From: Lophium mytilinum
Taxonomy: Eukaryota
Reading direction: 5' to 3'
Length of the DNA: 64,000 nucleotides
Assembly (NCBI GenBank): GCA_010093605.1
Contig: MU004184.1
Span: forward strand, 1,622,801 to 1,686,800
The notes beneath the pieces are model-generated. The model worked only from the letters and a program-made list of their open reading frames with translations, ran no database searches and was not told the origin of the DNA. The number at the start of each line of letters is the position of its first letter. The first letter of the stretch is position 1. This document shows positions 35,160-51,365 of this stretch, in pieces. A program made the position numbers and the translations under genes.

Positions 35160-35700
35160 ATGGCGACAGATGTGGCTCTAGAAACGACTATGGTAATAAA
35201 AGCCAATACACGGACCCATTCAATAGCTAGCTAACGCATTTAAGGGCGTCATTACCGTCGAATTATACAACAACCAAGCCCCGAAAACCTGCAAAAACTT
35301 CGCGACCCTGGCTCAACGTGGCTACTACAATGGCATAGTAGTTCATCGTATTATCCCAAACTTCATGGTGCAGACTGGTGACCCAACTGGTACGGGTCGA
35401 GGCGGCGCCTCGATCTATGGTGAAAAATTCGAGGATGAGATCGATCCTGGATTGAAGCACACCGGAGCTGGAATCCTCAGCATGGCGAATAGCGGACCAA
35501 ATACGAACGGTAGCCAGTTCTTCATCACGCTGGCACCGACCCCCTGGTTAGATGGCAAGCACACAATATTTGGGAGGGTCAAAGGTGGAATGAGGGTAGT
35601 GCAGAGGATGGGAATGGTCAAGACTGGTCCTGAGGACAGACCGGTTGATGAGCTCAGGATCGTAAAGGCCAAGGTTGTGGAACAAACGGAGGAGATCTGA
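35160..35700 (+). CDS. CYP1: Cyclophilin-type peptidyl-prolyl isomerase, PPIL1-like (one intron near 35193-35243)
   Basis: [74 protein letters not shown] and [12 protein letters not shown]. Confidence 0.93.
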
Positions 35701-36112
35701 CCTCACGGCATTTTGTATTGCCCAAAAACCATTCCACGGGCCTAGAAGTGAACACGATGGGAGAATCTCACGACAACCTTTCTACAACGGAGCGAGAGCT
35801 GACGAAAAACGTATCGAAAGTCAAAAAGGCCAATGACGGCGTTGAACATGAAAGGACGAAATAAGGTGAATAGGGCTACGTAAGTATGCTATATTTCCAT
35901 CTACTGAATCCAGCAGCTAAACTTCGAAGACGAATCTAAGCTCTAACCCACAGTCATTCTTGTCAACCTTGAGGGAACTGATTCACTCTTTTGCCCGAAG
36001 TCCTTAAGGACAGATCTCATAGTGCGGTAGCTCCATGAGAAGCTTTTTTGTTTGAACGCCGATGATATGCGTGGAACGTCAAAATTCTATTCAGTGAAAA
36101 GGGTACGATTGA

Positions 36113-38067
36113 CTAGTACAACCAGGGACCTATAGAGCGTTAGTGAGCTGGAAGGTCTAGAGACATTTGTTATCTTCAACCTACCTCTAATGAAACTGTT
36201 CTCTTGCTCGGAATGTAGAGGTATACGCATTACGTTTGTATGCACAACTTCCATTGCAAGTAAGGCATCCTGCGCTTTCACCACGAACCTACGATGGAAT
36301 ATCAGCTCAAGTATCTCAGAAACTTCCAGCGATAACGCATTAGACTTGCAAGAGCAAACTTACGATATGTTTATCTCGCTGGCCCCTTGGCTAATCAGAT
36401 AGATGCTTACCCTCGCACTAGCCAAGGCGCTGAAAACCTCTCCTGAAATCCCGACCATATTTCGCATCTTATGCCCGACAACCGAAATAATAGACATGTG
36501 TTTGGCCACGGTTACAATTCCGATCTCAGAGAGCTCTGCCACGGTTTCTTCGATGTTACTGTTGCTCTTCCTCGAGCCCTCAGAAGAGACTGCAAGACTG
36601 AGCATCTGCTGGCTGCTGCTGATGAGATCAATTGTATATTCATGGCGTCCGAGCCGCTGCGCTATTTGGCCGAGGAACTCTTGAGGTCTTGCTCTACCGT
36701 TCGAGCGGATGTTGAACACCGTAATCGAGTCCTTTGCCGTCACAGCAGTGGGCGTACGTCGATATTGACTCTCTCCATAGTACCCGTTTTTAGTCATAAA
36801 TACAGCCTTCGTTCTCGCGGCATCGTCTTCAGATGAAACGGGCGATGAATTTCCTGGGGTAGACTTTGGGGAGGTAGTTGGTGTTGCAATGGAAGGAAAA
36901 ACTATGGTTCCAGGTCTCTCTGGATGCTTCACATTCTTCAGCCGCAGTGGTATTTGCGCGTTGCAGATTTGCTCGATAGTGAGAGGATGGATCACCTGTC
37001 GCACTGTTAGAGATCTCCACTGGAAACTGAAGTACACCATCTGAATGGAAGCTTGGGGAAACGCACCTCGCTCCCGTAGTATGTAAGCTCGGCAGCCTCT
37101 TCTGAAGTCACCGTAGCGAGCAGCCTGGCCGACTTCACCTTTCGAGGATCTGCCGTAAATATGCCATCGACCTCTTTCCAGATCTGCAGCTCTTCGGCGG
37201 TGACCGCAACAGCACACAAAGCGGCACAGAGATCAGAATAGCCCCGACCTACGCTACTGACCAGCGATTCAGGCATCGCGCCAAAGAAGCCTATGCAACA
37301 AGGTTACCTCTAGCAGATATTATTATTAGGGGTCCACAAAAGAGGTTCATACCAGTAATGACCGGCACTCGTTCTCCACAACCGTTGACTTTCTTCCGAA
37401 TTGCGCCCGCCAGGCCTCCCAGAAACTCAGCGGGGTGACGTCTGAATGCGGCGGCGAGCTCTTTCTGACGACTCCCGTAGGTTTTTTGGACGATATCATC
37501 CAACACAACTACTTCGGCATCGATGTCCTATACAGATACTAGTAAGCACCGTCTCAAATGGCAACAAATGTCACAAACCTTCATTTTCAGCGAAGCAACT
37601 ACCAGCCGACAAGCTAGTGTCTCGCCGACCGCCAGGACTCGATCTTGAGTACGCTCCGATATCTCGCCAATAGTCCAAGTCGCCTTAAGAAAGCTTCGGA
37701 GGTGCTCGCAGTCATTTTCGATGCCTTCGAGTAGCTCATTAAGCACGGCTTCATGGCCTTTTTGCTGCTCAGCGCCACCGACAACAGTATCCGCAGCGTC
37801 CAAGTGCTCTAGTTTAATGATGTCGATAACTCGATCCAGCTCCACGGTTGACGTCTCGCTGGAGGTCGCGAGAGTTATCGCGTCGAGGAGGAGACTTGTT
37901 GTTCCCTGTGTCTTCTGGGTGCCTGATCGAGCGCTGCAAACCACAGCGACTTTGTACCTTTTCAGATAGTCGGGGATGATGGTGCCAGTGATTGGTTCCA
38001 GCAGCTTCCCTATAGAAGTACCTCCGTATTTCTGCACAACCCATTGACGTGTCTCAATTGAAACCAT
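36113..38067 (-). CDS. Aspartate kinase (Hom3/FUB3-like paralogue) with two ACT domains, multi-exon
   Basis: VVQKYGGTSIG, VVCSARS, DRVLAVGE, PVITG|FFG, VGRGYSDL, IWKEVDGIFTADPRKV, EAAELTYYGSE|VIHP and ACT2 SVVGHKMRNMVGISG...ISQGASEINIS. A last short intron gives C-terminus ...NSFIRGPWLY* (stop at 36113). Confidence 0.92.
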
Positions 38068-38219
38068 ACTTGTATCGAGATGTCTGGATGCTAGGAAGAA
38101 TGATGTTACGATTATTTACGGACACTACATGCTATGAAAACTTCCTTGTTTATACAAGTATAGCCATTGTGTAACCCTGCACATCTCTCGTGAGGTTGAG
38201 GCGCTTGCCACTAAGTTGC

Positions 38220-38319
38220 TGCCGAAGGCGCTAGGGCGATGCCGAAGTGCACTGGGCCCCCACGGGTTTTGATTGTGGATCACAAGCGGAGCGGCAGCAG
38301 CCGCAGTCTTACGTCGGCA
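38220..38319. promoter_or_regulatory. TGCCGA motif cluster upstream of aspartate kinase (putative Zn2Cys6 sites)
   Basis: TGCCGAAG at 38220 and 38240, and TCGGCA at 38314. Confidence 0.55.
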
Positions 38320-38787
38320 TTCTAGCTTTCCTTATCAATCCCCGGGATATGGTCTGGTTTAGATCGCCTTTGGGCTGCGGCACGGAGTAACGTCCTGAGG
38401 AAGGAGATGGACTTACGATTGGCCGTGTGTCTTTGGAAGTAAGCTACGAGCAAGTACGCACAGCGGAAGCATGATGGAGAGGTTTCGTACTTTACAGGCT
38501 CGCATACAGCACTGTTTCATAATATTAGGCACACGGATTTACCACTGCTTAAGTACAATCCTCCTCACTCAACACAATTACGAGGAGTACTCCAGCCCAA
38601 AGTCAAAAGGCAGTCTGGTTCGGACTACTTGAAACTTGACATTGCGTCTAGATATCTCAAACTTTATGGGGATACTTCAAGCAGTGGTAAAGAGGTGCAC
38701 AGACTCAAAGCCTATATCTGTAGTATGCAGGAGATGATGGGATCTACACTTTTCTGTACATGAAGACGAAGAAACTCTTGCAAACCC

Positions 38788-40375
38788 TTAAAACTCCCCA
38801 GATTCTGCCTCCCCAAAGACGCTACTAACGATTTCATCTGGTCTCACTCCCTCGATAGAGTCTTCAAGATCCGTTTCGTAGAACCAAGGGCATCGCTCTC
38901 GGAGGTGGCACGTGATTGCCCGGCTCAGTGCCTCAAATTCTAAGAGGAACCCGTCGTGTCCGTCTTGGGACTCGAGATTGAGGAATTTCGCCTCTGGTAA
39001 AGCCTCCGCGAGTTGAACCTGTTGCTCCGCCCTGAACAGAACGTCCGTTTCTACGCTGATTACAAGGGCTTGCGGAGGGACATTCTTGAATACATGCTCA
39101 AGATGTTCTTTGTGAGGAGGTATTGGGATATCGAGCCCTAATTGTATAGGTAACCGGCCGCGGGTGACGTCGTGAGTGTCCATTTTCGCCGTGAGATGGA
39201 TGTAGCAGTTGGCATCGAATCTCTGTGAAATTCAAAGTATTAGCCAAGTTTTCAATTGCAACATATACTCGTCTAGTTGAGGGCCTGAAGAACACCGGGA
39301 GCGTAGTAGCTTGCCTTTAAGAATTTCGCTGCCTGGTATTTGAGGTAACTTTGAGCTGCGAATTCCATGGGCGCTTGACCGTTCTGATCTATACATGGAT
39401 CCATCCGAGACTCTCTTGGATTTTCATTCTGACACGATAGCGGAGTTGATCCTACGCAACTAGAAGACGACGGTGGTGTTGATAAGCCTGTCGGCACCAC
39501 CGACGTAGATTGCTTCCTTTGGGTTGCTAGTCGACGGCTGAAGCGCTCTTCGAACGAGTTGTGCGAGCGATAAGTCAGCATGGCTATCATCCTCGCCGTA
39601 CTTAGTCCTTCAATGGGCTGTCCTGATGGCTCTGGAATATACCAACCGCTTTTAAAATTAGCATCCGCGTAGATGCTCATTCGTTGCGTTTCTCCCCACG
39701 CGATACCCCAGGCACTATGGTAGGCCGAAGTAGTAATCGGAACAATGTTCTTGACATATCCAACCGGTGTGCAAAGCGGCCACTCCAGGGTAGCCATTCC
39801 ACCCATAGATCCCCCGATCACAGCTGCGACTTCAGAGACACCGAGCTGATCAAGAACCATTTTTTGAATACTAGAATTCATGGGATTAGAACGCCTCCCC
39901 AACCCAGCTTTTCTGGTTCTTACCGAACGTCATCACGGACACTGGTCCTAGGAAATTCCGGACCATACTGCCGGCCAGTCTCAGGGTTGATGGTGAGAGG
40001 TGAAGCCGTCCCGTAAGGTGATCCGAGCATGTTCGCGCAAAAGATGAAGAACCGTCGAGGGTCAAACGCCTTCCCTCTACCCATCAGCGGTTGCCACCAG
40101 TCTTCCGCGTCGGCACTGCCTGAAAGAGCGTGACAAAGAACTAGACAATTACTGCCGCTTTCGTCAAGCGTGCCCCATGTTTTGTAGGCAACAGGGACCG
40201 AATAAAGCTGATGTCCGGACTCAAGGGTAAAGTGCGGTATCAGTGCGAACTTCTGATGTTTTACCAGATCGGCATAGTAATTGTGCGGTGCGGTGATAGG
40301 GCTGATCTCTCGTGAAATAGTAAGTAATAAGTTCGGAACGCCGCGTTGTGGTAGTTCAGACTTACTAGTTGTCAT
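38788..40375 (-). CDS. Homoserine O-acetyltransferase (Met2/FUB5-like); exons 40375-39924, 39870-39315, 39222-38788
   Basis: FTLESG, CHALSGSADAEDWW, NMLGSPYG, nucleophile GGSMGG, Asp in ETDVLF, His in GHDGFLLE and RFDANCY. CHALSGS/GGSMGG match homoserine transacetylases rather than Cys2 serine O-succinyltransferases. Confidence 0.92.
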
Positions 40376-40951
40376 TTTAGCTTTCCGTGGGAGTGTTCTT
40401 CCTAGCGATGAAATGCACGAGGATAGGTCTCTTGATGCAAGGAAAGGTCAAGGATGGACTTAATCTGGCAACACCAGATATTGACGGAAGTTTTACTAGC
40501 ACTGGCTTTTGAGGGATTCGTACGAGGTAAAGCAAAGTCCATAGACAGTTCTAACGCATCAAGTCCAGCGGTATAGTAAGGTGTTAAGACTTTTCTAAAA
40601 GCATTAAACTCACACTAGAGCTATAAGTTTCAAATGTAAGCAGGAATTACTAGTACCCGGGGATAGCTTGCAAAAGCAGCGTGGCGAATACTCAGGTAGG
40701 TTCTCCGCAGGGTTCATTTACGCGAGATATGAGATATCCTTGTTGACTCGGCGTTTGATATGTAAGTGTATCGGGGTCTGGGTCGATCTGCCGACCGGCT
40801 CGCCATGTGCTAAAAAGCACCTTACCTATGCCAGAGTTATTTTGCAGCCTCCGGTGCAGAACCTCTTTAAGAAAAGAGGTCTGCTTGATGGGTATCACCG
40901 GAGCAAAAGACGAAGACTTGCAGACATTATTTCTCAGCATTCTCTAAGAAT

Positions 40952-42348
40952 ATGACAGGAATGCTTGGAAACACGGTCAAGGTAGCGGCAGTCCAAGCTG
41001 CGCCCGTATCCTTCAATCTGCACGAAAGCTTAGATAAGGTTTCAACACTCACCACGGAGGCTGCCAGGTCGGGTGCCGATCTGGTAGTCTTCCCGTATGC
41101 CGCTCTCTTTCTCAGATGTCGATTAAAAGGAAGCTAATCATAACTTAGGGAAGGATTTCTTTCTGCTTATCCGTGGAGATACGCTTTTGATGCTACGATT
41201 GGAGCTCGGGAGCCAAGAGGTACATCAATTTTACTTACCACGAATAAGGAAGATTCTGACACTCCGGGTTGCTTTAATAGGTCGAAAATGGTTTGCGAAA
41301 TACTACAATTCTGCGATAGCCATTGAATCTCCAGAATTCCAGATCCTGCTCAGCATTGCTAAAGCAAACAAAGTCATTCTTTCCGTTGGAATAATCGAAA
41401 AAGATGGAGGTACATTATACTGCTCCGCAGTTCTTATTGGAAGAGATGGAAAGTTACTCTCTAACCACCGAAAGGTAGGCAGGACTCACGCTAGCTACAG
41501 GAATGATGAACGTTGGTAACAATGACTAGCTGATCCCTACGGCGGCGGAGAGGCTAGTATGGGGCCGCGGGTCCGGAGACGGCCTGAAAGTTGTGGATAC
41601 AGACATTGGAAAGGTCGGAGGCCTGATATGGTATTTGATTGCCGTGATTTGTGCAAGCGATACATGCATCTAATGAAACGTAGCTGGGAGAACTACATGC
41701 CCGCCGCAAGGCTGGCGTTGTATCAGCAGGGAATTGAGTGCGTCAATCTTCGCGCGGCTAAACCTGTGAGAGCGCTAATAACAGTCTGAAGAATCTGGCT
41801 TGCCCCAAATGCCGACGACCTGCCAAGTTGGACAGCTTCGATGCAGCATATCGCAAAAGAGGGTCGTTGTTGGGTCATCTCAGTCAACCAGTTTTGCAAG
41901 GTAAGGTTCTAGAAAAGCCTCGCTGTCGATACTCATAACAGCAGGTGTCCGATTTTCCTTCGGACTATCCACCATTCACTCCTGAGCACTATGATCGACA
42001 GCCCGATGGGTCGGCTTGGACTCCGGATGCTATTCTCAACCATGGCGGCTCATGTGTCGTTGGCCCATTGGGAGTTTTTCTGGCTGAACCTTTGTGGGAC
42101 AAGGAAGGCATTATCTATGCTGATCTCTCGAGAGACACTTTGATTGAATCTAGGGTATGTAAATCCGATCAAGATGATACTCCGGCGCTGATGTCAGTAC
42201 AGATGGATTTCGATCCAGTCGGAAGCTACTCTCGACCGGACATATTGTGAGTTACCGCAGTCTATGAGGGGGTACATATGCTAAGAATTTGGGCAGTTCT
42301 TTGCACGTTAATACGAAGCCCGGTGTGAATGTTGTTCTGAAGGAGTAA
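40952..42348 (+). CDS. Nitrilase (CN hydrolase branch 1), plant NIT4/yeast Nit1-like, about 9 exons
   Basis: KVAAVQAAP, catalytic Glu in LVVFP|E, Lys in [15 protein letters not shown], Cys in ICWENYMP (Cys codon split by an intron), [18 protein letters not shown] and [12 protein letters not shown]; ends ...VVLKE*. Confidence 0.92.
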
Positions 42349-42748
42349 AGGAGACGTTGATTGCACCTCAAAGTCGACGAGGAAGAGTATGCTCAGAGCG
42401 CCAGGAGAGTCTAACGCCCTAAGACAGCGTGCTAGACTAGGCGTAGGCCAGATAAAGAAACATTTCCAGGGCCTTGTAGTAAGAGGCTCTTACGTCGATG
42501 GCTTGTTCTGCTGCGGCGAGTTACAAGATGAAAGCCATGCAGTGAAGAAGTTTGAAGAGCGCCAAGCGCTGACTAACATGCACGTGACACTCCTTTTCGC
42601 CAGTTGGACTTGTCCCTCCCCGCTCATTCATCCCTCAACAACCATATTCTACTCACAACTCCACAGGACGCCGGGCTGAGCTGGCCTAGCAAACGCACGA
42701 TCTTACGGAGGTCTATTTACAGTTCTGTGGCGTGTTCTACATATCTGA

Positions 42749-42813
42749 TGCCGAATGCTCATAACATGGCCGTCATCAATGCCGAAGCACAGTGGGCCAG
42801 ATGCCGATCGGCA
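42749..42813. promoter_or_regulatory. TGCCGA motif cluster upstream of the cluster TF (putative autoregulatory sites)
   Basis: TGCCGA at 42749, 42780 and 42802, plus TCGGCA at 42808 (palindrome TGCCGATCGGCA). Confidence 0.55.
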
Positions 42814-43166
42814 AGATGCAACGGCAGAGCATTCTACAATGTTTCAACCGCCTGGGCATGCCTTATCCAATCAGAAGCGCGATCGCTCACAAGTTCCCGT
42901 GATTTTCTCAATAAACGTCGTTGATAACCCACAGGGCGCTGGTAGGCCCTATTTTTCCTCTCTATGTGTGCATATCTAGGTACGTCTTGCACGGGATAGT
43001 GAGATTGTCAGACCATCACTGCTACTCGGCGTCAGGGAAGAGGTCTATAATGGATATGTACTGTCATTCGCCTGTCTTCCACGAGGTATTTGACTGATGC
43101 GCTTTTTTGCTCGGGCTTTGGATTAACTCGAGCTTGTTCTTCTTACTCCCAACGCCAACACGTGCC

Positions 43167-45630
43167 ATGGCCATGACAACAACAAGCAAGGGCAAGGGCA
43201 AGCGAACCAAGCCTCCTGTTAAGGTAGCTTGTCTTGCTTGGTAAGTAAGATTTAGGTCTATGTTACATTCAGTTAACATAGAGTGATGCTGACGGCGATA
43301 AAAGTCGAGCTTCACGCATTAGATGTGACGGTAACACTACCTGTGCGAACGTATGTACCGAACGAAGTCAAAAACTGTTCGGGAACTGATGTTGTAAAAG
43401 TGTTTCGCCAAGGATCAAGAGTGTGTATACACCAAAAGCAACCGTGGTGGGCCTCGGGTCTCGCGGAAAAAGGCCGCTCAGTATGTTCAACCTCATGGCG
43501 AACGAGAGCAGCAAGAGCAGTTTCTTCCCTTCGATGACCTTACGCAAATCGACCTCTCGAGTTCGCTAGAATCATATCAGAGCTCATATGACGATATGTT
43601 CGGCGACATCATCATGCCCATGATCACGCCAGGGGCGGGACTGAAGAGCCTGGACAGTGATCAAATCTTTCATAGTATCTTTGGCAACATAACCGAGTCT
43701 AGCTCAGAGAACTCGAGTTCCTCAATCAATGAGTTCCATGCACCGGCTGCAGAATATCGACTTCGACCACGTACGTACGGAAGTGACAAAGACATGTGAG
43801 CATCACTCTTCGCTAGCCCAGATCTCTTTTGATTGCTCCATTCGAGCATTCACATATACGTGTCATCCAGGTCCGCACTTAGACCAGGCGCAAAAGCTGA
43901 TATAATTCCAAGACTGAATGCGTATTATATCTACATTCATCCTTATTTCCCGATCTTGCCGCCGCCGGAGTCCGTGGTCTCTATCGACAACCCTTTGGCC
44001 GACAGGTCACACGAGTTCGAACCTTCCTCTCCTCTGAGTCTGGCTATATCAGCTATATTGTCGCTAGTGCCGAACCCTGAGGATAGGTGTCCCCAAAGTC
44101 CGGAATCCGTTCTCTTTCGGAGGAAGCAAGCCCACCTCTTTGCACAGTTGGCCATGGAGAGCATCGAGATTGAGTCGGAAATACTTGCCTCTACGACCTC
44201 GCCTGCTGAGGCTCTCGGTAGCAAGCCGTCATTATTCAGAAGAGATCTTTTCCACCCGAAGACTCCCGTGGAGCTAGAAAGTATCCTAGCATACCTTATG
44301 CTCAGCGGCTACGAATATGCACAAAGAGGGAATCTAGCAAAGATGCGAAATAGAGCTAGCCAAGCCCTTGATGCCGCAACCCGGTTATGTTTACAAAAGG
44401 ATATCACAGGGGTTGGTGATATTTACCGTGAAGCAAAACAGAGGGCTTGGTGGATGACAGTAAGCAATTCTCTTGTAGTACAGAACTATAAAACTACAGT
44501 GGCTAATTAAAGCAGTATGTTTGTGTCCTACAATGCTCCATCGTTACTAGCACCGCTCCAATAATGGCAATTGACCATCAATCTTTCACTACCCGGCTTC
44601 CGACAATCAAAGCAGACCCTGGGGCTTGGAAGGCATTCATCGACGCCCAGCAAATGATATGGAGGTGTACAGAGTATACTATATCCTTGAAGCACATTCT
44701 GGACTCTGGAAGAAGCCCCTCGGTGCTTGACTCGCAGATGAAAGCTCTGGATCATGAACTGGACTCGCTGATTGAAGACCAAAATTTGGATCTAGACATA
44801 ACATACTGTGACCTTGTTGACGTCGACGAAGGTGTGCTCGCAAGATCGCTCCGGGCGCAGGCCCAAATAAAGCTTCAGAGCTCTAAGATTAAGCTCCATC
44901 GGTACAGGGCATTTCAAGACGCTCCACTTTTCACTCAGAAACACTGCGATCTCCAAGAAAGATCAAAGCCCTCTTCTATCGTTACTCCTCCCTCTTGCTG
45001 TAGCGGTTCGCTGTTCTCAGAGTTTCCCATTTCTTCTCCAGACCGCATGAGGCGCACCTCCTCCGCGTCAATTTCCGAAGCGTCGTCACCTGGCGAATCA
45101 CTACTCAGCGATATACCATCGATGAAAGTTTGCTTGAAATCTGGATTGTCAATATCGAGGCTCTTTGAATCTCTCCCATATCCATATTCGATGCGAGCAC
45201 TAGATACATCTTCGTTTCCATTTGCATATCACAGCGCCGTCATTCAAGCGCCCAGAACTATGCCGGCTTTTGCCTGTTGCGCAATGCAAAGCAGGTAATT
45301 ACCCCGAACTACGGCTCAGAGTTTTCGTCAATCGCGTACTAATAAGACATCCGCAACAGCTATGCATTGCTCATGCTCTGCCGAAAAAGTCGTGATATCA
45401 ACCGAGGCTCATACAGTGGAAATCCAGCTGCTAGTGGGCTCGGGGAGCTCTATTCAGGAATACGGCGTGTATTGAGTGCACTTGAGAACTATGCGATTGC
45501 TTTTGAAGCGATTGACGGCATGCGAGGTATGCATGAACTTCATCCGTAACAACATAGGTACTGATGAAAGAAAGGTCAAATACAAGAGGCACTTGAAGTA
45601 GCTATTACTGATGATGGAGCAACGTGGTAA
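43167..45630 (+). CDS. Zn(II)2Cys6 transcription factor with fungal-specific TF middle domain (cluster regulator candidate)
   Basis: Spliced CLAC-RASRIR-C-DGNTT-C-AN-C-FAKDQE-C cluster, then LNAYYIYIHPYFPILP, YEYAQRGNL and RAWWMT. Last exon ...DGATW* ends at 45630. Confidence 0.88.
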
Positions 45631-46464
45631 CACACGGTGGGACCAATAGACGTGATTAGTTAAGGATACGCGTCAGCGTCTTCATCAAGTCGATTTGCGA
45701 GCTGAGCGATTTGATATCTATACCAGTTTTTACCGAAGCCGCTTGTATCTACTAGGTGTCTGAGGAGCAATTTGCGACCATATATTGACACTGTCTTGAA
45801 TATCTCCTTAGCGCAACACGGCAACGGATCTAGCGGAGAGTTAGATATGTAGAGATGAGTCTCTGGGCGCGTTATCTTCCCTTGTCTACCTAACGTGATT
45901 TCCAATCACATGGGATGGGCCTCTTGAACAGTGCAGTCGTATTTATAGCTTCATTTCGGGGAATTTTGCTATGTTTACAGCGCCACATGCCGTTGTGGAG
46001 ACTCGAAGAGCACGATGTCATGTTCTCGACACCATTGCTACACGCAGGACCGAGGTTCAAGATGCAAGATGTCACGTGGACTGCCACTTTATGTCCAACA
46101 AAGCCTGTTACCACAATCGTCTAGAAACTCCACACAAGCCATCTCACCACCATCTACTTCCGCGTCTTCTCGTGGCTGCGAATCTTGTCAGACGGGAAAT
46201 CAGGGTGCGTAATTGTAGTACAATCTCTATTCCCCGTACTAGTGACGCAGACATCTGTACTAGTGACGCGGGCACCCATACTGGTGCCGCGGGCGCCGAT
46301 GGGCTTAGACCGTTTCATGCGGGGAATGCTCTCGGGCTTTGCCTCAAATGGCTCACGGCATCCAATGCCCTCGATAGACACAGGCATGTAAAGCAAATAC
46401 AATCGGCTTCTGATAACAGGCGACGCAACGGTACCGTGGATCGGCCAGAGATAATGGAACGCAT

Positions 46465-46488
46465 ACTGAAGTCGGTGCCGAGTTCAGT
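46465..46488. promoter_or_regulatory. Imperfect 24-bp palindrome with CGG-N2-CCG core upstream of the sulfhydrylase gene
   Basis: ACTGAA-g-TCGG-tg-CCGA-g-TTCAGT, ending about 145 bp before the ATG at 46633. Confidence 0.5.
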
Positions 46489-46632
46489 CACCACAATCAC
46501 TTAGACCGAAATCATTCTCATATCTCTTATATTTAACGCATCTATCCAGTCTTCATATCTCTAATCCAGTCAATATCACTCGCACACGCAATTCTACTAT
46601 TTTCTCACGTCCCGAACTTAATTCCTATCAAC

Positions 46633-48240
46633 ATGGTATCAGGTCACTTGGGTCAAGTTACGAAGTAGGCTTTCCCCTACCGTCATATTCTATGACCAAG
46701 GACATACTGACAGTATAGGACCCCAGAGTTTGAGACGCTTGCTCTCCATGGCGCTCAAGAACCAGATCCCATAAATGGCTCTCGTGCGCTTCCTCTCTAC
46801 CAGACTGCTGCATACAACTTCACAGATGCCGCCGATGGTGCTAGCAAGTTCGCGTGGTCTAAGGATGGCTACGTCTATACTCGTATGGGCAATCCGACCA
46901 ACTCAGTATTCGAGAACCGCATGGCAATGCTTGAAGGAGGAGTTGGAGCGGTCGCAACAGCGTCTGGTCATGCTGCTCAGGTAAGTTCTACGAAAGCGCA
47001 TATGCAACGAAGCTTATATGTACATCAGTTCATGGCAATTACGTCAGCATGTGAGCCAGGACAGAACTTCATCAGCACAATGAATCTCTATGGAGGAACA
47101 TTCAATCAGGTATGCGGTGTATCTTCAAGTGCCGAAACTTTCACTAATTCTATAAATCAGTTCCGAGTTTATATGAAGAAGTTCCACATTACGTGCAAAT
47201 TTGTTGAAGGACAAGATCCCAATAACATCAAGAAGGCCATCGACGAGAACACACGCGCGGTGTACGTGGAAACAATCGGGAACCCCCAGTTCAATGTGCC
47301 GGACTTAGAGGCAATTGCCAATGTCGCCCACGAAGCCGGAATACCTCTTATCGTTGACAACACATTCGGCATGGGCGGCTACCTTTGCAAACCCATCTCT
47401 CTGGGTGCCGACATCGTTACCCACAGCTGCACCAAGTGGATTGGTGGTCACGGTACATCAATGGGAGGTATCGTCATTGACGGCGGCCATTTTGACTGGT
47501 CTGCCAGTGGCAAGTTCCCCGGCTTCACCGAGCCCGCAGATGGCTACCATGGCATGCGGTTCTGGGAGACCTACGGGCTCAAAGCGCTGTCAGCCAAACT
47601 TCGCATGGACGCAATGCGTGACTTAGGTCCGTGTATGTCCCCTTTCAACGCTTGGCTGTTCTTGCAGGGTCTGGAGACTCTAGCCTTACGAGGTCAAAGA
47701 CATGTTGAAAACACTCTCGCATTCGCAAAGTGGCTCCAGGCCCATCCATGCGTGGCTTGGGTCAACTACCCCGGTCTCGAATCACATACAGACTACGCAC
47801 GTGCCAAAAAGGTGCTTCCAAAAGGAGCTGGAGGCGTTCTTACCTTCGGCGTAGCTGGAAACATCAGCGAGGTTGCTGCTGTGGTTGACAACCTGAAGCT
47901 TTGCTCTCATCTTGCCAATGTTGGAGATGCGAAGACACTCATCATCCACCCTTGGCGGACAACCCATCAGCAGATACCCGACCAGGAAAAGATCCGAGGT
48001 GGAGTCACACCAGACATGATTCGAGTCAGTCTCGGCTTAGAACATATCGAAGACATCAAACATGACTTCGAGCAGGCGTTTGTGGGAGCTGGTTTGAAGC
48101 CGGCGCAAGGATGGATTCCAACATGGAAGAAGGATATGGAAAGCAAAGACTGGAACGAGGGCACCCTGTATGCACCCGCACCCGGAGCTCCCGAAGGTGT
48201 CAAGGAGATGGCTGCTCGTGCGATAAGTGCAAGCGCATGA
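46633..48240 (+). CDS. PLP-dependent O-acetylhomoserine sulfhydrylase family enzyme (Met17/FUB7-like paralogue), 4 exons
   Basis: FETLALHGAQEPDP, YTRMGNPT, LEGGVGAVATASGHAAQ, ETIGNP, VDNTFG, PLP-lysine HSCTKWIGGHG, QGLETL, LANVGDAKTL and IRVSLGLE. Confidence 0.93.
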
Positions 48241-48619: not shown

Positions 48620-49792
48620 CTAGTCTGTCCCTCCGCTTGTGATTCTACGACCATATCGGGTATATAGCTTAGTGAGGAGCTCCCGCGCGATCAGGCCTCG
48701 CTCGAAGGACGTTCGGGGATCAAACTTCGGACCAGAGTATGGAAATGAGACAGTCCCTGTGAAGTCGGTCTGCCCCTTTTCATAGAAGTTCAGTGAAAAG
48801 CTCTCTGCCTTCTTCAACATCTCTCTCAAACATGCACCGATGGGCTCGCCTCTCTCTTCCGCTTGCGCGGCCCAGCTCCATAACGATGGGTCGTGGAAGT
48901 CAACGCCGTCCTTGCGCGGGAGGATCTGCGCGTTGAATAGCAGATGACGCACGATTTGCATATTGCATCCATGATCGATGACTGCAGCCTGGATGAAGTC
49001 GGTTGATAGTGCGTTCCCTACGCCCAACAGAACGGCAAGGGCTGCGACAGCTCGTTCATTTCCTTCTTGGATGGCCTGGTGAAGCCCTTGCCTTGCCGTC
49101 TCTCCTGCCATCGAGCCCGCCCAATCAATCTCGCCATGAAAGCAGACCAAAACATACAGAAGATCCGCCTTGGCCGTAGTCCAAGGTCCGCAAAGTAGTC
49201 GGTCAGGAATGGCAAATCCTTCGGCGAACCCTAGATAGTCAATCTTGCATAGCTTGTATGGCCACAATCCGTCGAGGTAGCTTGGGTCTGGAGCTTGGAT
49301 TCCGGTGTCGCCCCATCCACTCGCTTCTGAATTTCGTTTGAGAAGAGTATAGGCTCTCTCCGCATAGCTGAGGAAGAACGGCCATGAGAAGAAACGGCAA
49401 GCTAGGAGCTCTGATTGGAGGGTTACGGGGGGGTTTTGATCGCCACGCGTTTCGAAGAAGGCTTTGATACAAAATCGAATGCGGATGTTCTGTGAAGAGA
49501 GCTTGGCACCGAGTAGTGAAGAGCTCCGGGGTAATGCAATATTCATGCTATGGAGAAAGATGATTTCTAGAAGCTCCTGGGGAATGCCCTGGAGAGAAGG
49601 TTTCGCTGCCTCGGCCATCTTCCTGGAACGGTTTCTTGCTCTCTGCTGTCGTAGTTGTGACGGGAACTCCAATACCTGCCGCTTCACAGGCCGAGGAGCG
49701 TCGCTTCGAGCAGAGTTGTCGGAAGATGCCAGCTGCGATGGTGCCCTTCGCTTGGTGCGTTTCCCCCGGACGTTGATCGGGGTGAGGGCCAT
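48620..49792 (-). CDS. Conserved fungal hypothetical protein (possible F-box-like N-terminal segment)
   Basis: Uninterrupted ORF. It is open to 49846, but MALTPINVRGKR at 49792 looks the likelier start. Contains SLQGIPQELLEIIFLHS and is divergent from the next gene. Confidence 0.7.
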   Translation of the reverse strand: MALTPINVRGKRTKRRAPSQLASSDNSARSDAPRPVKRQVLEFPSQLRQQRARNRSRKMAEAAKPSLQGIPQELLEIIFLHSMNIALPRSSSLLGAKLSSQNIRIRFCIKAFFETRGDQNPPVTLQSELLACRFFSWPFFLSYAERAYTLLKRNSEASGWGDTGIQAPDPSYLDGLWPYKLCKIDYLGFAEGFAIPDRLLCGPWTTAKADLLYVLVCFHGEIDWAGSMAGETARQGLHQAIQEGNERAVAALAVLLGVGNALSTDFIQAAVIDHGCNMQIVRHLLFNAQILPRKDGVDFHDPSLWSWAAQAEERGEPIGACLREMLKKAESFSLNFYEKGQTDFTGTVSFPYSGPKFDPRTSFERGLIARELLTKLYTRYGRRITSGGTD

Positions 49793-50013
49793 GTATAGAC
49801 AACTGGTGCCTGGGAGGCGTCGTCTCGCAAGGATTAGCGGTTCCATTGCGAGTGGAGGTGAATCTTGCCGGTGGCGCTGGCCTAAACCCGAAGCTGTGAG
49901 AACGGCCTTGGCGCGGAGATTCGTTCTTCCTCTCCAAACAAAACATCCCAGCTGAACTTCACTTCATCAACCTCGCGGCCGACACCGTTTAATCTGTCGC
50001 GTTACTCTCTACC

Positions 50014-51365
50014 ATGCAGGTCCACGCCGTCCCGGATGCTGAGCGCGTACACGACTCTCTTGGGCGTCAGCTCCCCTGGGGTTTCGAATATGCGGAGTGA
50101 GTTAAAACGTGCAATTCTACACCAACAACTTCAGGATAGCTAACATGTTTCTGTCGCGACGTAGCTCCGATCACAACCAGCGTCGCATACCCGAAGAGAA
50201 GGGCCCTTTCGGCAAGTCGACGAGAGGCAGGCTGGGCAAGTCACGAACCAAAACAGCAACGCCTGCGCGAACTGTCGACCAAGCGAAGCTAGAGAACTTG
50301 CGCGCTATCGACGACATATTCAACGCCTTCAAGAACGAGCCCAAGAATAAAGAGAGCCAGACAAGTCCAAGGAAACCAGGCGGAGGTCTTGTGGCTTCAC
50401 AATCGGCGCCAAACCTCGACATCGGCGGAGCCATCGCTGCGGGTAGTGCTCAACAGACAGTCTCCACAGAGCCGACGCCTGTGATTCTGTACGGCTACGG
50501 GAGCGACCTGCAATGGGCAGCGATTGACCACTATGAGAAGGTGTCTAACGGGTTTATCTATGAGGAATACGATCGCACCCCTATGCAGCAGAGATACAAC
50601 CTCTCTCTGAGTCTGCATCGGTCAGCCGCGCAACGAAGTCTCGCCAAGGAAGCCCTCCGGGACACTAACAAGTTCGTTGGAGGCTATCACTGGATCAAAG
50701 TCACCTTCGATTCGCCAGAGTCCGCAGAGCGTGCCTGTCACTATTCACCGCACGTAATCCATGGATACCAGGTTCATGCAGAGAGATATAGAGGGACTGG
50801 ACCAAACGCGGATGTTGCTTTCCCGGCCACCAGTGGGCTTCTCTCCTCGCAAACTAGTTCGCCGAATCCGTCATCAACGACACTCCTTGCGGCATCACAA
50901 TCACAGACCTCCGAGACTGCGTCATCCGCGACAGCAACCGCATCGATACCAGCTTCCACCGTTCAAAATACCGCCAGTCGAAGTGTTGCAGGCGCTAGAG
51001 CGGGGTTGGTACTGGGAAACCGAAATCAGGCCGCTGAACCGGCAGGCGCTGTTGCCTCAGGCACGCAACGGGAACCAGCCCGGCAGCCCACCCTCCGGAT
51101 CAAAAGTGCCAAACTAGGGAAGATGTTGCCAGCCGATCAAGCTGTCCTTCCAGCGGCTCCTCTCTGGCAACAGACGATGAGAAGTGTCCCCGTGCTCGGA
51201 TGGGTGTTTGGCAGCGGACATGAAATTATTGGCAATCAAGTGCCGCGTAAGGCGGATGGGGGCTTCGACTCCGATGGCGCCAGCGTCTACTGGAAGTTCT
51301 GGTACATGATCGACTCTTGCTTTGGGACTGACTTCTGTGGCGTTCGGGGTGATGAAGATGATTAA
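50014..51365 (+). CDS. Nup53/Nup35-type RRM nucleoporin-like protein (one intron near 50096-50164)
   Basis: MQVHAVPDAERVHDSLGRQLPWGFEYA spliced to the long ORF; VILYGYG...GGYHWIKVTFDSPESAERAC resembles the Nup35 RRM; aromatic amphipathic C-terminus. Confidence 0.7.

Follow-up and report, generated by a model that had tools for sequence, protein, structure and literature searches.

A conserved five-gene cluster in Lophium mytilinum and other Pezizomycotina, a candidate pathway for cyanide assimilation through O-acetylhomoserine

The window described here is a 64,000-nucleotide stretch of the genome of the fungus Lophium mytilinum (GenBank assembly GCA_010093605.1, contig MU004184.1, positions 1,622,801 to 1,686,800). 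It carries five contiguous genes, which encode an aspartate kinase (AK), a homoserine O-acetyltransferase (HAT), a nitrilase (NIT), a Zn2Cys6 transcription factor (TF) and a pyridoxal phosphate (PLP) enzyme related to the O-acetylhomoserine (OAH) sulfhydrylases (OAHS). A preliminary description had read these genes as a candidate route for the assimilation of cyanide. Here we report that the cluster is a conserved, apparently co-inherited unit across five classes of Pezizomycotina, present in about 50 species, and that its PLP enzyme and nitrilase appear to be specialised paralogues. The most economical reading, to which we give an even chance, is that the cluster would turn aspartate (Asp) and hydrogen cyanide (HCN) into glutamate or glutamine (Glu/Gln) plus NH3 via OAH and gamma-cyano-alpha-aminobutyrate.

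Gene content and transcripts of the cluster

The DNA of the window is of fungal type with short introns. Gene models were built from stop-to-stop open reading frames (ORFs) and Pfam scans of exon pieces, followed by splicing guided by homologues. All five spliced models are open and free of internal stops, and their introns are canonical GT-AG pairs except for one GC-AG pair in HAT. The limits of the cluster span, 36113 and 48240, are the stop codons of AK and OAHS, respectively (Table 1). The five intact genes with their catalytic motifs, which had been proposed for this region, were recovered in the spliced models, and the four enzyme genes also in the Pfam scans.

Table 1. Features of the cluster, in positions of the window
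Feature	Positions	Strand	Description
AK (aspartate kinase, cluster-type, 'FUB3-like')	36113-38067	-	6 exons, 546 aa; AA_kinase and ACT domains
HAT (Met2-family homoserine O-acetyltransferase)	38788-40375	-	4 exons, 461 aa; Pfam Abhydrolase_1
Divergent HAT/NIT intergenic region	40376-40951	.	by position, a shared bidirectional promoter region
NIT (NIT4-like nitrilase)	40952-42351	+	9 exons, 326 aa; CN_hydrolase
TF (Zn2Cys6 regulator)	43167-45630	+	7 exons, 687 aa
OAHS (Met17/MetY-type PLP gamma-substituting enzyme, 'FUB7-like')	46633-48240	+	4 exons, 484 aa; PF01053

The AK model contains the motif KYGGTS and is validated by its identity over 546/546 residues (100%) with a database protein annotated as aspartate kinase of Lophium mytilinum (P0469), whose AA_kinase (1e-30) and ACT_9 (4e-21) domains place it in the aspartate kinase family. 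The HAT model shows the GGSMGG nucleophile elbow and the DGHDGF histidine of an alpha/beta-hydrolase, and the top solved relatives of its ortholog are CefG (2vat, 1e-87) and then bacterial homoserine O-acetyltransferases (1e-60 to 1e-49). We argue for homoserine rather than serine as the predicted acceptor of HAT, because AK and an aspartate-semialdehyde dehydrogenase are linked. In Fusarium kuroshium one gene model (P0501, CDV36_000928) joins the cluster-type AK to an aspartate-semialdehyde dehydrogenase, and the OAHS of that species (CDV36_000924) lies four locus tags away; the dehydrogenase is a sixth, lineage-specific member of the cluster there, and its fusion to the cluster AK supports a role in the supply of homoserine from Asp.

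An embedded Zn2Cys6 regulator had also been proposed, and the TF gene, situated between NIT and OAHS, does encode the full CX2CX6CX5CX2CX6C motif, CLACRASRIRCDGNTTCANCFAKDQEC, split across exons 1-3. Its exon pieces from the window had no Pfam match of their own; the ortholog P0315 carries the Zn_clus (1e-6) and Fungal_trans (3e-8) domains of this regulator family. TF orthologs are linked to OAHS at three other loci (L002, L007 and L019) and in or beside the protein models P0248, P0295, P0311 and P0351.

While the five-gene cluster of the preliminary description stood, the promoter motifs that its genes were said to share did not, as exact k-mer sharing was no better than in shuffled controls. 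Among exact k-mers, no 7-mer was common to all four promoter regions of the cluster, no 9- or 10-mer occurred in at least three of the four, and the lone 8-mer found in three was below the shuffled mean; the counts of shared 6-8-mers were likewise not above the controls. Orthologous promoters of the window and of L002, L007, L019 and L003 had no 8- or 9-mer in common.

Transcript evidence comes from a single public run (X1), which holds 87% of the region's sampled words and whose nature as RNA was guessed rather than taken from its record. AK, HAT, TF and OAHS are transcribed and spliced in this sample, where contigs carry splice joints for all three OAHS introns (3/3), all six TF introns (6/6), three HAT introns and one of the five AK introns (37291-37352), the remaining four AK introns being retained in the contig. 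The third TF intron measures 117 nt in X1, and a small 3' TF intron is also spliced there. The HAT introns joined are 39871-39923, 39223-39314 and 40309-40365. The second of these, on the minus strand, is the GC-AG pair (GCAAGC...CACAG), and the third, also on the minus strand, is an in-frame intron of 57 nt just past the start, after the fourth codon; keeping it would add 19 residues (480 aa) with the frame unbroken. As the X1 contigs cannot rank expression levels, the conclusion on expression is limited to the splicing of these four genes.

An X1 joint also skips 36260-36319 with GT..AG on the plus strand, antisense to the 3' part of AK, and the contig that carries this joint shows a loose end at 35930. 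The signal between 35930 and 36320 resembles an antisense transcript, or a read-through one, that comes from the cyclophilin gene on the left of the cluster.

Conservation of the linkage in Pezizomycotina

Conservation of the nitrilase beside the AK, HAT and OAHS trio in other genomes had been named beforehand as a test of the proposed pathway, and its outcome was strongly positive. In the roughly 50 species the genes are adjacent, lie on one contig or are merged in mis-called proteins. The carriers belong to the Dothideomycetes, Eurotiomycetes, Leotiomycetes, Sordariomycetes and Lecanoromycetes, and are ecologically broad, including wood saprobes, endophytes, plant pathogens, lichens and thermophiles.

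A set of 79 loci with OAHS-like genes, taken from metagenome contigs, was searched by tblastn with the five window proteins. All five genes were present on an 18-kb metagenome contig (L002) in the order TF(-), NIT(-), HAT(+), AK(+), OAHS(+), and four of them, TF, OAHS, NIT and HAT, in L007; L019 had TF and OAHS, while L026 and L029 had AK and OAHS. The head-to-head HAT/NIT pair is common to the window, L002 and L007, and the tandem of TF followed by OAHS to the window, L007 and L019.

Merged gene models, which imply that the genes are adjacent on one strand, gave a second line of evidence. They join HAT, AK, OAHS and TF in Cudoniella acicularis (P0248), NIT, TF and OAHS in the order of the window in Fusarium solani (P0295), and AK and OAHS in Thermoascus crustaceus (P0255). 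NIT and OAHS are merged in Xylaria polymorpha (P0030), X. flabelliformis (P0372) and Annulohypoxylon nitens (P0391), and TF with OAHS in Penicillium expansum (P0311) and a Helotiales species (P0351); the locus tag of P0402, a merger of AK and HAT, comes after that of P0351. The best 120 matches to the HAT+AK segment of the Cudoniella protein were all from carrier taxa.

Accession numbers and locus tags agree with this picture, those of OAHS and NIT being 1-5 apart in 15 species. Examples are Lepidopterella (OCK74948/50), Rasamsonia (KKA22267/71), Parahypoxylon (KAL7626855/56) and Alectoria (ASARMPRED_000879/880), together with KAH7110546/48, VTN02DRAFT_845/848, HYALB_00008192/93, KAI0866706/07, OTA66438/39 and OEA41_001844/45. 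Close tags were also found for AK, HAT and NIT in Pycnora (M1827_002179, 2181 and 2182), for OAHS and HAT in Letharia (HO133_007319 and 7321), for NIT and AK in Colletotrichum jinshuiense (EsH8_X_000484 and 486), and for AK and OAHS in Paecilomyces (DTO282F9_1274 and 1278). By manual tally, about 50 species show a longest contig of the same size for AK or HAT as for OAHS or NIT, a match that for large contigs indicates a shared contig only; some of these contigs are small, at 14, 20, 27, 50, 62, 78, 92 and 100 kb.

NIT and OAHS form the most constant pair of the cluster and are directly adjacent in many Xylariales and lichens. The OAHS and NIT trees roughly follow the fungal classes and both place Paecilomyces and Penicillium near the Sordariomycetes, which suggests that the cluster was inherited as a unit.

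In Xylariales, a DSBA/GST-kappa-like gene lies directly 3' of the cluster OAHS (P0008, P0331, P0366 and P0368). In Xylaria cubensis the accessions run KAI0866706 (NIT), 07 (OAHS) and 08 (DSBA-like), and the DSBA-like gene is sometimes fused to OAHS in models. No such gene was present among the window ORFs scanned.

The flanks of the cluster had been described as unrelated to it, and this holds. To the left lie a TRIP4-type zinc-finger gene and a cyclophilin (35227-35700, plus strand), and to the right two ORFs, 48620-49963 (minus) and 50106-51365 (plus), neither of which has a Pfam family; the genes of neither flank recur at the related loci. The absence of polyketide synthase (PKS), nonribosomal peptide synthetase (NRPS) and transporter families, likewise proposed before, was confirmed among the ORFs scanned in and beside the cluster (window positions 27-57 kb). 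The GC content is 0.475-0.50 in the cluster region and 0.63-0.64 in the window blocks 22-28 kb and 58-64 kb.

The PLP enzyme and the nitrilase as diverged paralogues

OAHS matches PF01053 with E=3e-122 over profile positions 1-380 of 381, and its PDB matches include the Met17-type 8ovh (2.5e-138) and FUB7 (8erb, 1e-136). The PLP-binding lysine lies in SCTKW, aligned with Lys210 of TmMetY, and the DNT aspartate and the YTR motif of the Tyr-x-Arg pocket are present. The active site is conserved in its C-terminal half, and the segment AMRDLG aligns with LLRDLG of 7kb0, which gives OAHS an equivalent of Arg270. This residue is described in Thermotoga MetY as walling off the second-substrate site and keeping out cysteine (PMC8191291). 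Its retention in OAHS is compatible with a small nucleophile.

In a FastTree phylogeny of 133 OAHS-type proteins with Shimodaira-Hasegawa-like support, the cluster enzymes make up a 52-row clade (support 100) whose stem measures 0.34 substitutions per site. This clade includes every nitrilase-linked OAHS and is patchy in distribution; the Met17 proteins of Exophiala, Capronia and basidiomycetes, as well as bacterial MetY, fall outside it, so that the window OAHS is separate from housekeeping fungal Met17 and does not group as its ortholog. The window protein is 88% identical to one from Lepidopterella palustris, and identities to it range from 66 to 88% within the clade and reach at most 62% outside.

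Comparison of 36 clade members with 81 other sequences revealed 13 positions that are fixed differently in the clade. At window residue 50, in an N-terminal loop, all 36 clade rows have Asp where 81/81 ordinary enzymes have His, the residue that FUB7 and Met17 also keep. The changes L54K, L57W and F290W are clade-specific too, and each falls either in this loop or in the SPFNAW segment. On the tree and these residues, we assign the cluster OAHS to a specialised paralogue clade, distinct from ordinary Met17.

A divergent pair of AK(-) and OAHS(+) in L026 (1-3940) and L029 (7160-11290) falls within the clade, on a long branch of 0.33. No NIT, HAT or TF was found in the 7 kb examined to the left of the pair in L029, and the pair may represent a derived form that serves a different function.

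The cluster could also be understood as a second, conditional module for homocysteine and methionine (or for selenium or sulfur), made of duplicates of HOM3, MET2 and MET17 with a loosely associated nitrilase. Three of its four enzymes do form the direct-sulfhydrylation pathway, and metY-metX pairs are common in bacteria, as seen in 10 of the 79 loci, where a MetX-like gene with 30-40% identity to HAT stands beside a bacterial-type OAHS-like gene in the ordinary metY-metX arrangement. We nevertheless hold such a module to be very unlikely, since the most constant pair is the one that includes the supposedly loose nitrilase, and since the patchy OAHS clade is set off from ordinary Met17 by a long stem and by changes at otherwise invariant positions.

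If the genes were a leftover or a piece of a fusaric-acid-like (FUB) secondary-metabolite cluster, this would explain why UniRef calls cluster members by names such as 'Aspartate kinase FUB3' and 'Sulfhydrylase FUB7' and why FUB7 is among the top PDB matches of OAHS. Also in its favour, FUB3 and FUB7 'orthologues' are listed for F. solani-clade fungi that do not have FUB2, FUB4-6, FUB8 and FUB10 (PMC6167834); such genes plausibly belong to the cluster described here. This explanation is barely credible, however, as OAHS matches the Met17-type 8ovh as well as it does FUB7 and differs from FUB7 at the clade-specific sites, as the ORFs scanned in the window, L002 and L007 include no PKS, NRPS-like reductase, oxidase or major facilitator superfamily gene, and as the constant partner is a nitrilase, an enzyme that the FUB cluster does not have (PMC6167834).

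The spliced NIT model has the catalytic residues E48 (VVFPE), K134 (HRKLIPT) and C169 (GLICWENYMP). It is 93.5% identical to its ortholog from Mytilinidion resinicola (P0164), in which CN_hydrolase spans profile positions 1-254 of 256. That the nitrilase is NIT4-like, as first suggested, is well borne out: the closest solved structure is Arabidopsis thaliana NIT4 (6i00) with E=2e-87/2e-88, far ahead of all others, the next match being at 8e-53/7e-46 and the cyanide hydratase 9ofa at 5e-30 only.

In the NIT tree, 102 of 121 rows form a fungal clade with support 100, sister to bacterial and metagenome sequences, and the OAHS-linked nitrilases are scattered throughout it. The loop after the catalytic glutamate reads YPWRY in the window NIT and in 85 of the 87 fungal-clade rows with a readable motif. 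The NIT4-type form, YPRG, is absent from the window NIT; it is present in NIT4 and in 19 of the 20 readable rows among P0220-P0240, which are bacterial and metagenome sequences with two fungal ones. Replacement of YPRG by YPWRY is what a changed substrate predicts, and these comparisons mark the fungal NIT clade as a specialised paralogue clade rather than ordinary NIT4.

Because NIT4 is by far its nearest solved relative, NIT might instead serve a route of the plant type. It would then hydrolyse beta-cyanoalanine to Asp, the beta-cyanoalanine being of plant origin or the product of a cysteine-dependent cyanoalanine synthase whose gene lies outside the cluster. From Asp, AK would lead to OAH, and OAHS would recapture as homocysteine the H2S that cyanoalanine synthase releases, so that cyanide would again be detoxified, with recycling of sulfur. 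Characterised fungal NIT4 homologues hydrolyse, and prefer, beta-cyanoalanine (PMC7503981), the nitrilase product Asp is the substrate of AK, and OAHS retains the general MetY active-site architecture including Arg270. We judge this route unlikely all the same. The scanned ORFs of the cluster and its surroundings contain no PALP-fold cyanoalanine synthase, and neither do L002 and L007; the loss from OAHS of a histidine invariant in 81/81 sulfhydrylases and the changed YPRG loop of NIT are unexpected with canonical substrates; and the tight adjacency of NIT and OAHS suggests consecutive steps.

The neighbours of 80 bacterial and archaeal NIT4-like nitrilase loci were surveyed by profiling 144 of the 152 nearest-neighbour ORFs, six very long ORFs being among those left out, and proved heterogeneous. 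A PALP-fold (cysteine-synthase-like) gene directly follows the nitrilase in only two of the 80 loci, at 6912-7256 in L095 and 6909-7835 in L100 (Acidobacteriota), which is the arrangement expected of a bacterial cyanoalanine synthase/NIT4 pair. A threonine synthase stands beside the nitrilase in L111.

Proposed pathway and comparison with known systems

In the proposed cyanide pathway, the cluster AK, together with the housekeeping aspartate-semialdehyde and homoserine dehydrogenases, would increase the flux from Asp to homoserine, which the Met2-type HAT would convert to OAH. OAHS would turn OAH into a PLP-bound vinylglycine ketimine and add cyanide at C-gamma, yielding gamma-cyano-alpha-aminobutyrate (2-amino-4-cyanobutanoate). 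NIT would hydrolyse this nitrile to glutamate and NH3, hydrate it to glutamine, or do both, and the Zn2Cys6 TF would switch the cluster genes on. On balance, Asp and HCN would give Glu/Gln and NH3, and the carbon and nitrogen of cyanide would be retained during its detoxification. All substrate assignments, the order of the steps and the regulation by TF are predictions. FUB3 and FUB5, homologous to the cluster AK and HAT, presumably raise the supply of OAH in their own pathway.

The cluster has neither a gene that makes a nucleophile nor a tailoring enzyme, and since NIT and OAHS are its most constant pair, this points to a nucleophile that itself brings the CN group. Cyanide is the obvious candidate, as OAH sulfhydrylases reportedly form gamma-cyano-alpha-aminobutyrate from it (findings credited to Omura and colleagues in 2003 and to Brysk and Ressler in 1970) and NIT4-type enzymes hydrolyse the one-carbon-shorter beta-cyanoalanine.

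The same logic could apply to another cyano nucleophile, such as thiocyanate, cyanamide or a plant mercapto- or cyano-compound, with assimilation, detoxification or a non-proteinogenic amino acid as the outcome; in the thiocyanate variant, S-cyanohomocysteine would be converted to homocysteine, CO2 and NH3. The evidence from clustering and from the clades fits this alternative equally well, and alterations near the active sites of both OAHS and NIT would be expected of a non-canonical pair of substrates. Relatives in the PLP family accept varied nucleophiles, and FUB7 is among the closest solved structures of OAHS; the DSBA/GST-kappa-like gene after OAHS in Xylariales hints at thiol chemistry. 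We still consider another nucleophile somewhat unlikely, because the scanned ORFs of the cluster include none that would provide such a compound or bring it into the cell, because the broad ecology of the carriers speaks for a small molecule found everywhere rather than one tied to a host, and because the retained Arg270 equivalent is easier to reconcile with a small nucleophile than with a bulky one.

Several observations count against the cyanide pathway. A MetY, MetX or AK gene was found beside a NIT4-like nitrilase in none of the 80 bacterial and archaeal loci (0/80, flanks examined), and among the 79 OAHS-like loci a nitrilase neighbour occurred in the fungal L002 and L007 only; with none outside fungi in these 80 and 79 loci, most of them prokaryotic, the pairing of MetY and nitrilase has no independent prokaryotic precedent. 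Clade-type OAHS genes stand without partners within 5-10 kb in L003, L004, L036 and L038. The X1 contig over NIT (40366-43239) is colinear with the genome and has none of the eight NIT introns spliced (0/8), so that X1, with unspliced cover only, does not support co-expression of NIT with the other cluster genes. The lack of a common promoter motif is a separate point against the pathway. FUB7 has the same Arg as OAHS yet takes a larger nucleophile, and the Arg270 equivalent thus does not prove a small one. The route is also costly, at ATP, two NADPH and acetyl-CoA per HCN, and many ascomycetes already have cyanide hydratase (PMC7503981, PMC6928751).

The interpretation given in the preliminary description is partly supported, by the linkage and by the specialisation of the paralogues, and fails for the promoter motifs, and it has to be read beside the missing prokaryotic MetY-nitrilase precedent and the missing spliced NIT transcript. 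A wider form, that many ascomycetes carry a dedicated, regulated OAH pathway that brings HCN into glutamate or glutamine and whose PLP enzyme and nitrilase co-evolved away from Met17 and NIT4, is a tentative proposal whose chances we place just short of even. A full-text search, with subscription-only journals outside its coverage, found no description of this gene combination, and the cluster is apparently undescribed.

Fungal cyanide tolerance is usually ascribed to cyanide hydratase and alternative oxidase. If the cyanide pathway is true, it would be a third mechanism in fungi, and one that gains nitrogen; it would also give the gamma-cyanoaminobutyrate pathway its first genetic definition in any organism, would be the first such pathway in a eukaryote, and would account for orphan 'FUB3/FUB7' genes in fungi without a fusaric acid cluster. 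Since plant hosts give off HCN, from cyanogenic glycosides as well as in ethylene synthesis, the pathway would be relevant to plant-fungus interactions, and it could matter for wood-decay communities, lichens and cyanide bioremediation. It would further offer two new biocatalysts, a PLP enzyme making a C-C bond with cyanide at C-gamma and a cyano-amino-acid nitrilase. Whatever the chemistry, a five-gene cluster has been kept across five fungal classes, with members that are now mis-named after fusaric acid genes.

Among known systems, the route that Strobel described in a psychrophilic basidiomycete is similar in that a fungus puts HCN into glutamate through an amino-nitrile that is later hydrolysed, in that case 4-amino-4-cyanobutyrate (PMC6928751). 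It differs in being a Strecker-type addition to succinic semialdehyde, with the cyanide carbon at C1 of glutamate instead of the C5 proposed here, and its enzymes were never identified. The fungal nitrilases NitTv1 and NitAb (Rucka et al. 2020, PMC7503981) are also NIT4-related and act on a cyano-amino acid. They are studied there in isolation, and that paper makes no mention of homoserine, a sulfhydrylase or gene neighbours; NitAb has an extra loop of 25 residues and its catalytic Cys at 195, compared with Cys169 in the window NIT.

The bacterial gamma-cyano-alpha-aminobutyrate route of Chromobacterium violaceum and Bacillus stearothermophilus CN3 (where the enzyme is an OAH sulfhydrylase) has the same step as that proposed here, the reaction of OAH with cyanide on a MetY-type enzyme, followed by formation of glutamate. 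To our knowledge that route is defined by biochemistry only, with no gene cluster and no dedicated nitrilase. The fungal cluster, by contrast, has a dedicated paralogue, genes for OAH supply and a regulator, and the gamma-cyanoaminobutyrate route is otherwise listed as bacterial (PMC13257105).

The beta-cyanoalanine synthase and NIT4 system of plants and some bacteria follows the same logic, from cyanide to a cyano-amino acid and on to an amino acid and NH3, and NIT is a relative of NIT4. The proposed acceptor in the fungal cluster is, however, the C4 compound OAH rather than the C3 compounds cysteine or O-acetylserine, and the products would be Glu/Gln rather than Asp/Asn. The cluster PLP enzyme is of fold-type I (PF01053) and not of the PALP fold, and its nitrilase has YPWRY instead of YPRG.

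A similar gene set is the FUB3/FUB5/FUB7 module of fusaric acid biosynthesis in Fusarium, to which the CndF and LolC systems are related. It has the same clustered paralogues of AK, HAT and an OAH-dependent, gamma-substituting PLP enzyme. The cluster of Lophium mytilinum and its relatives differs from it in having no PKS, NRPS or oxidase partner, in the constant presence of a nitrilase, in its spread over five classes and not one genus, and in an OAHS clade distinct from FUB7, with Asp where FUB7 has the invariant His.

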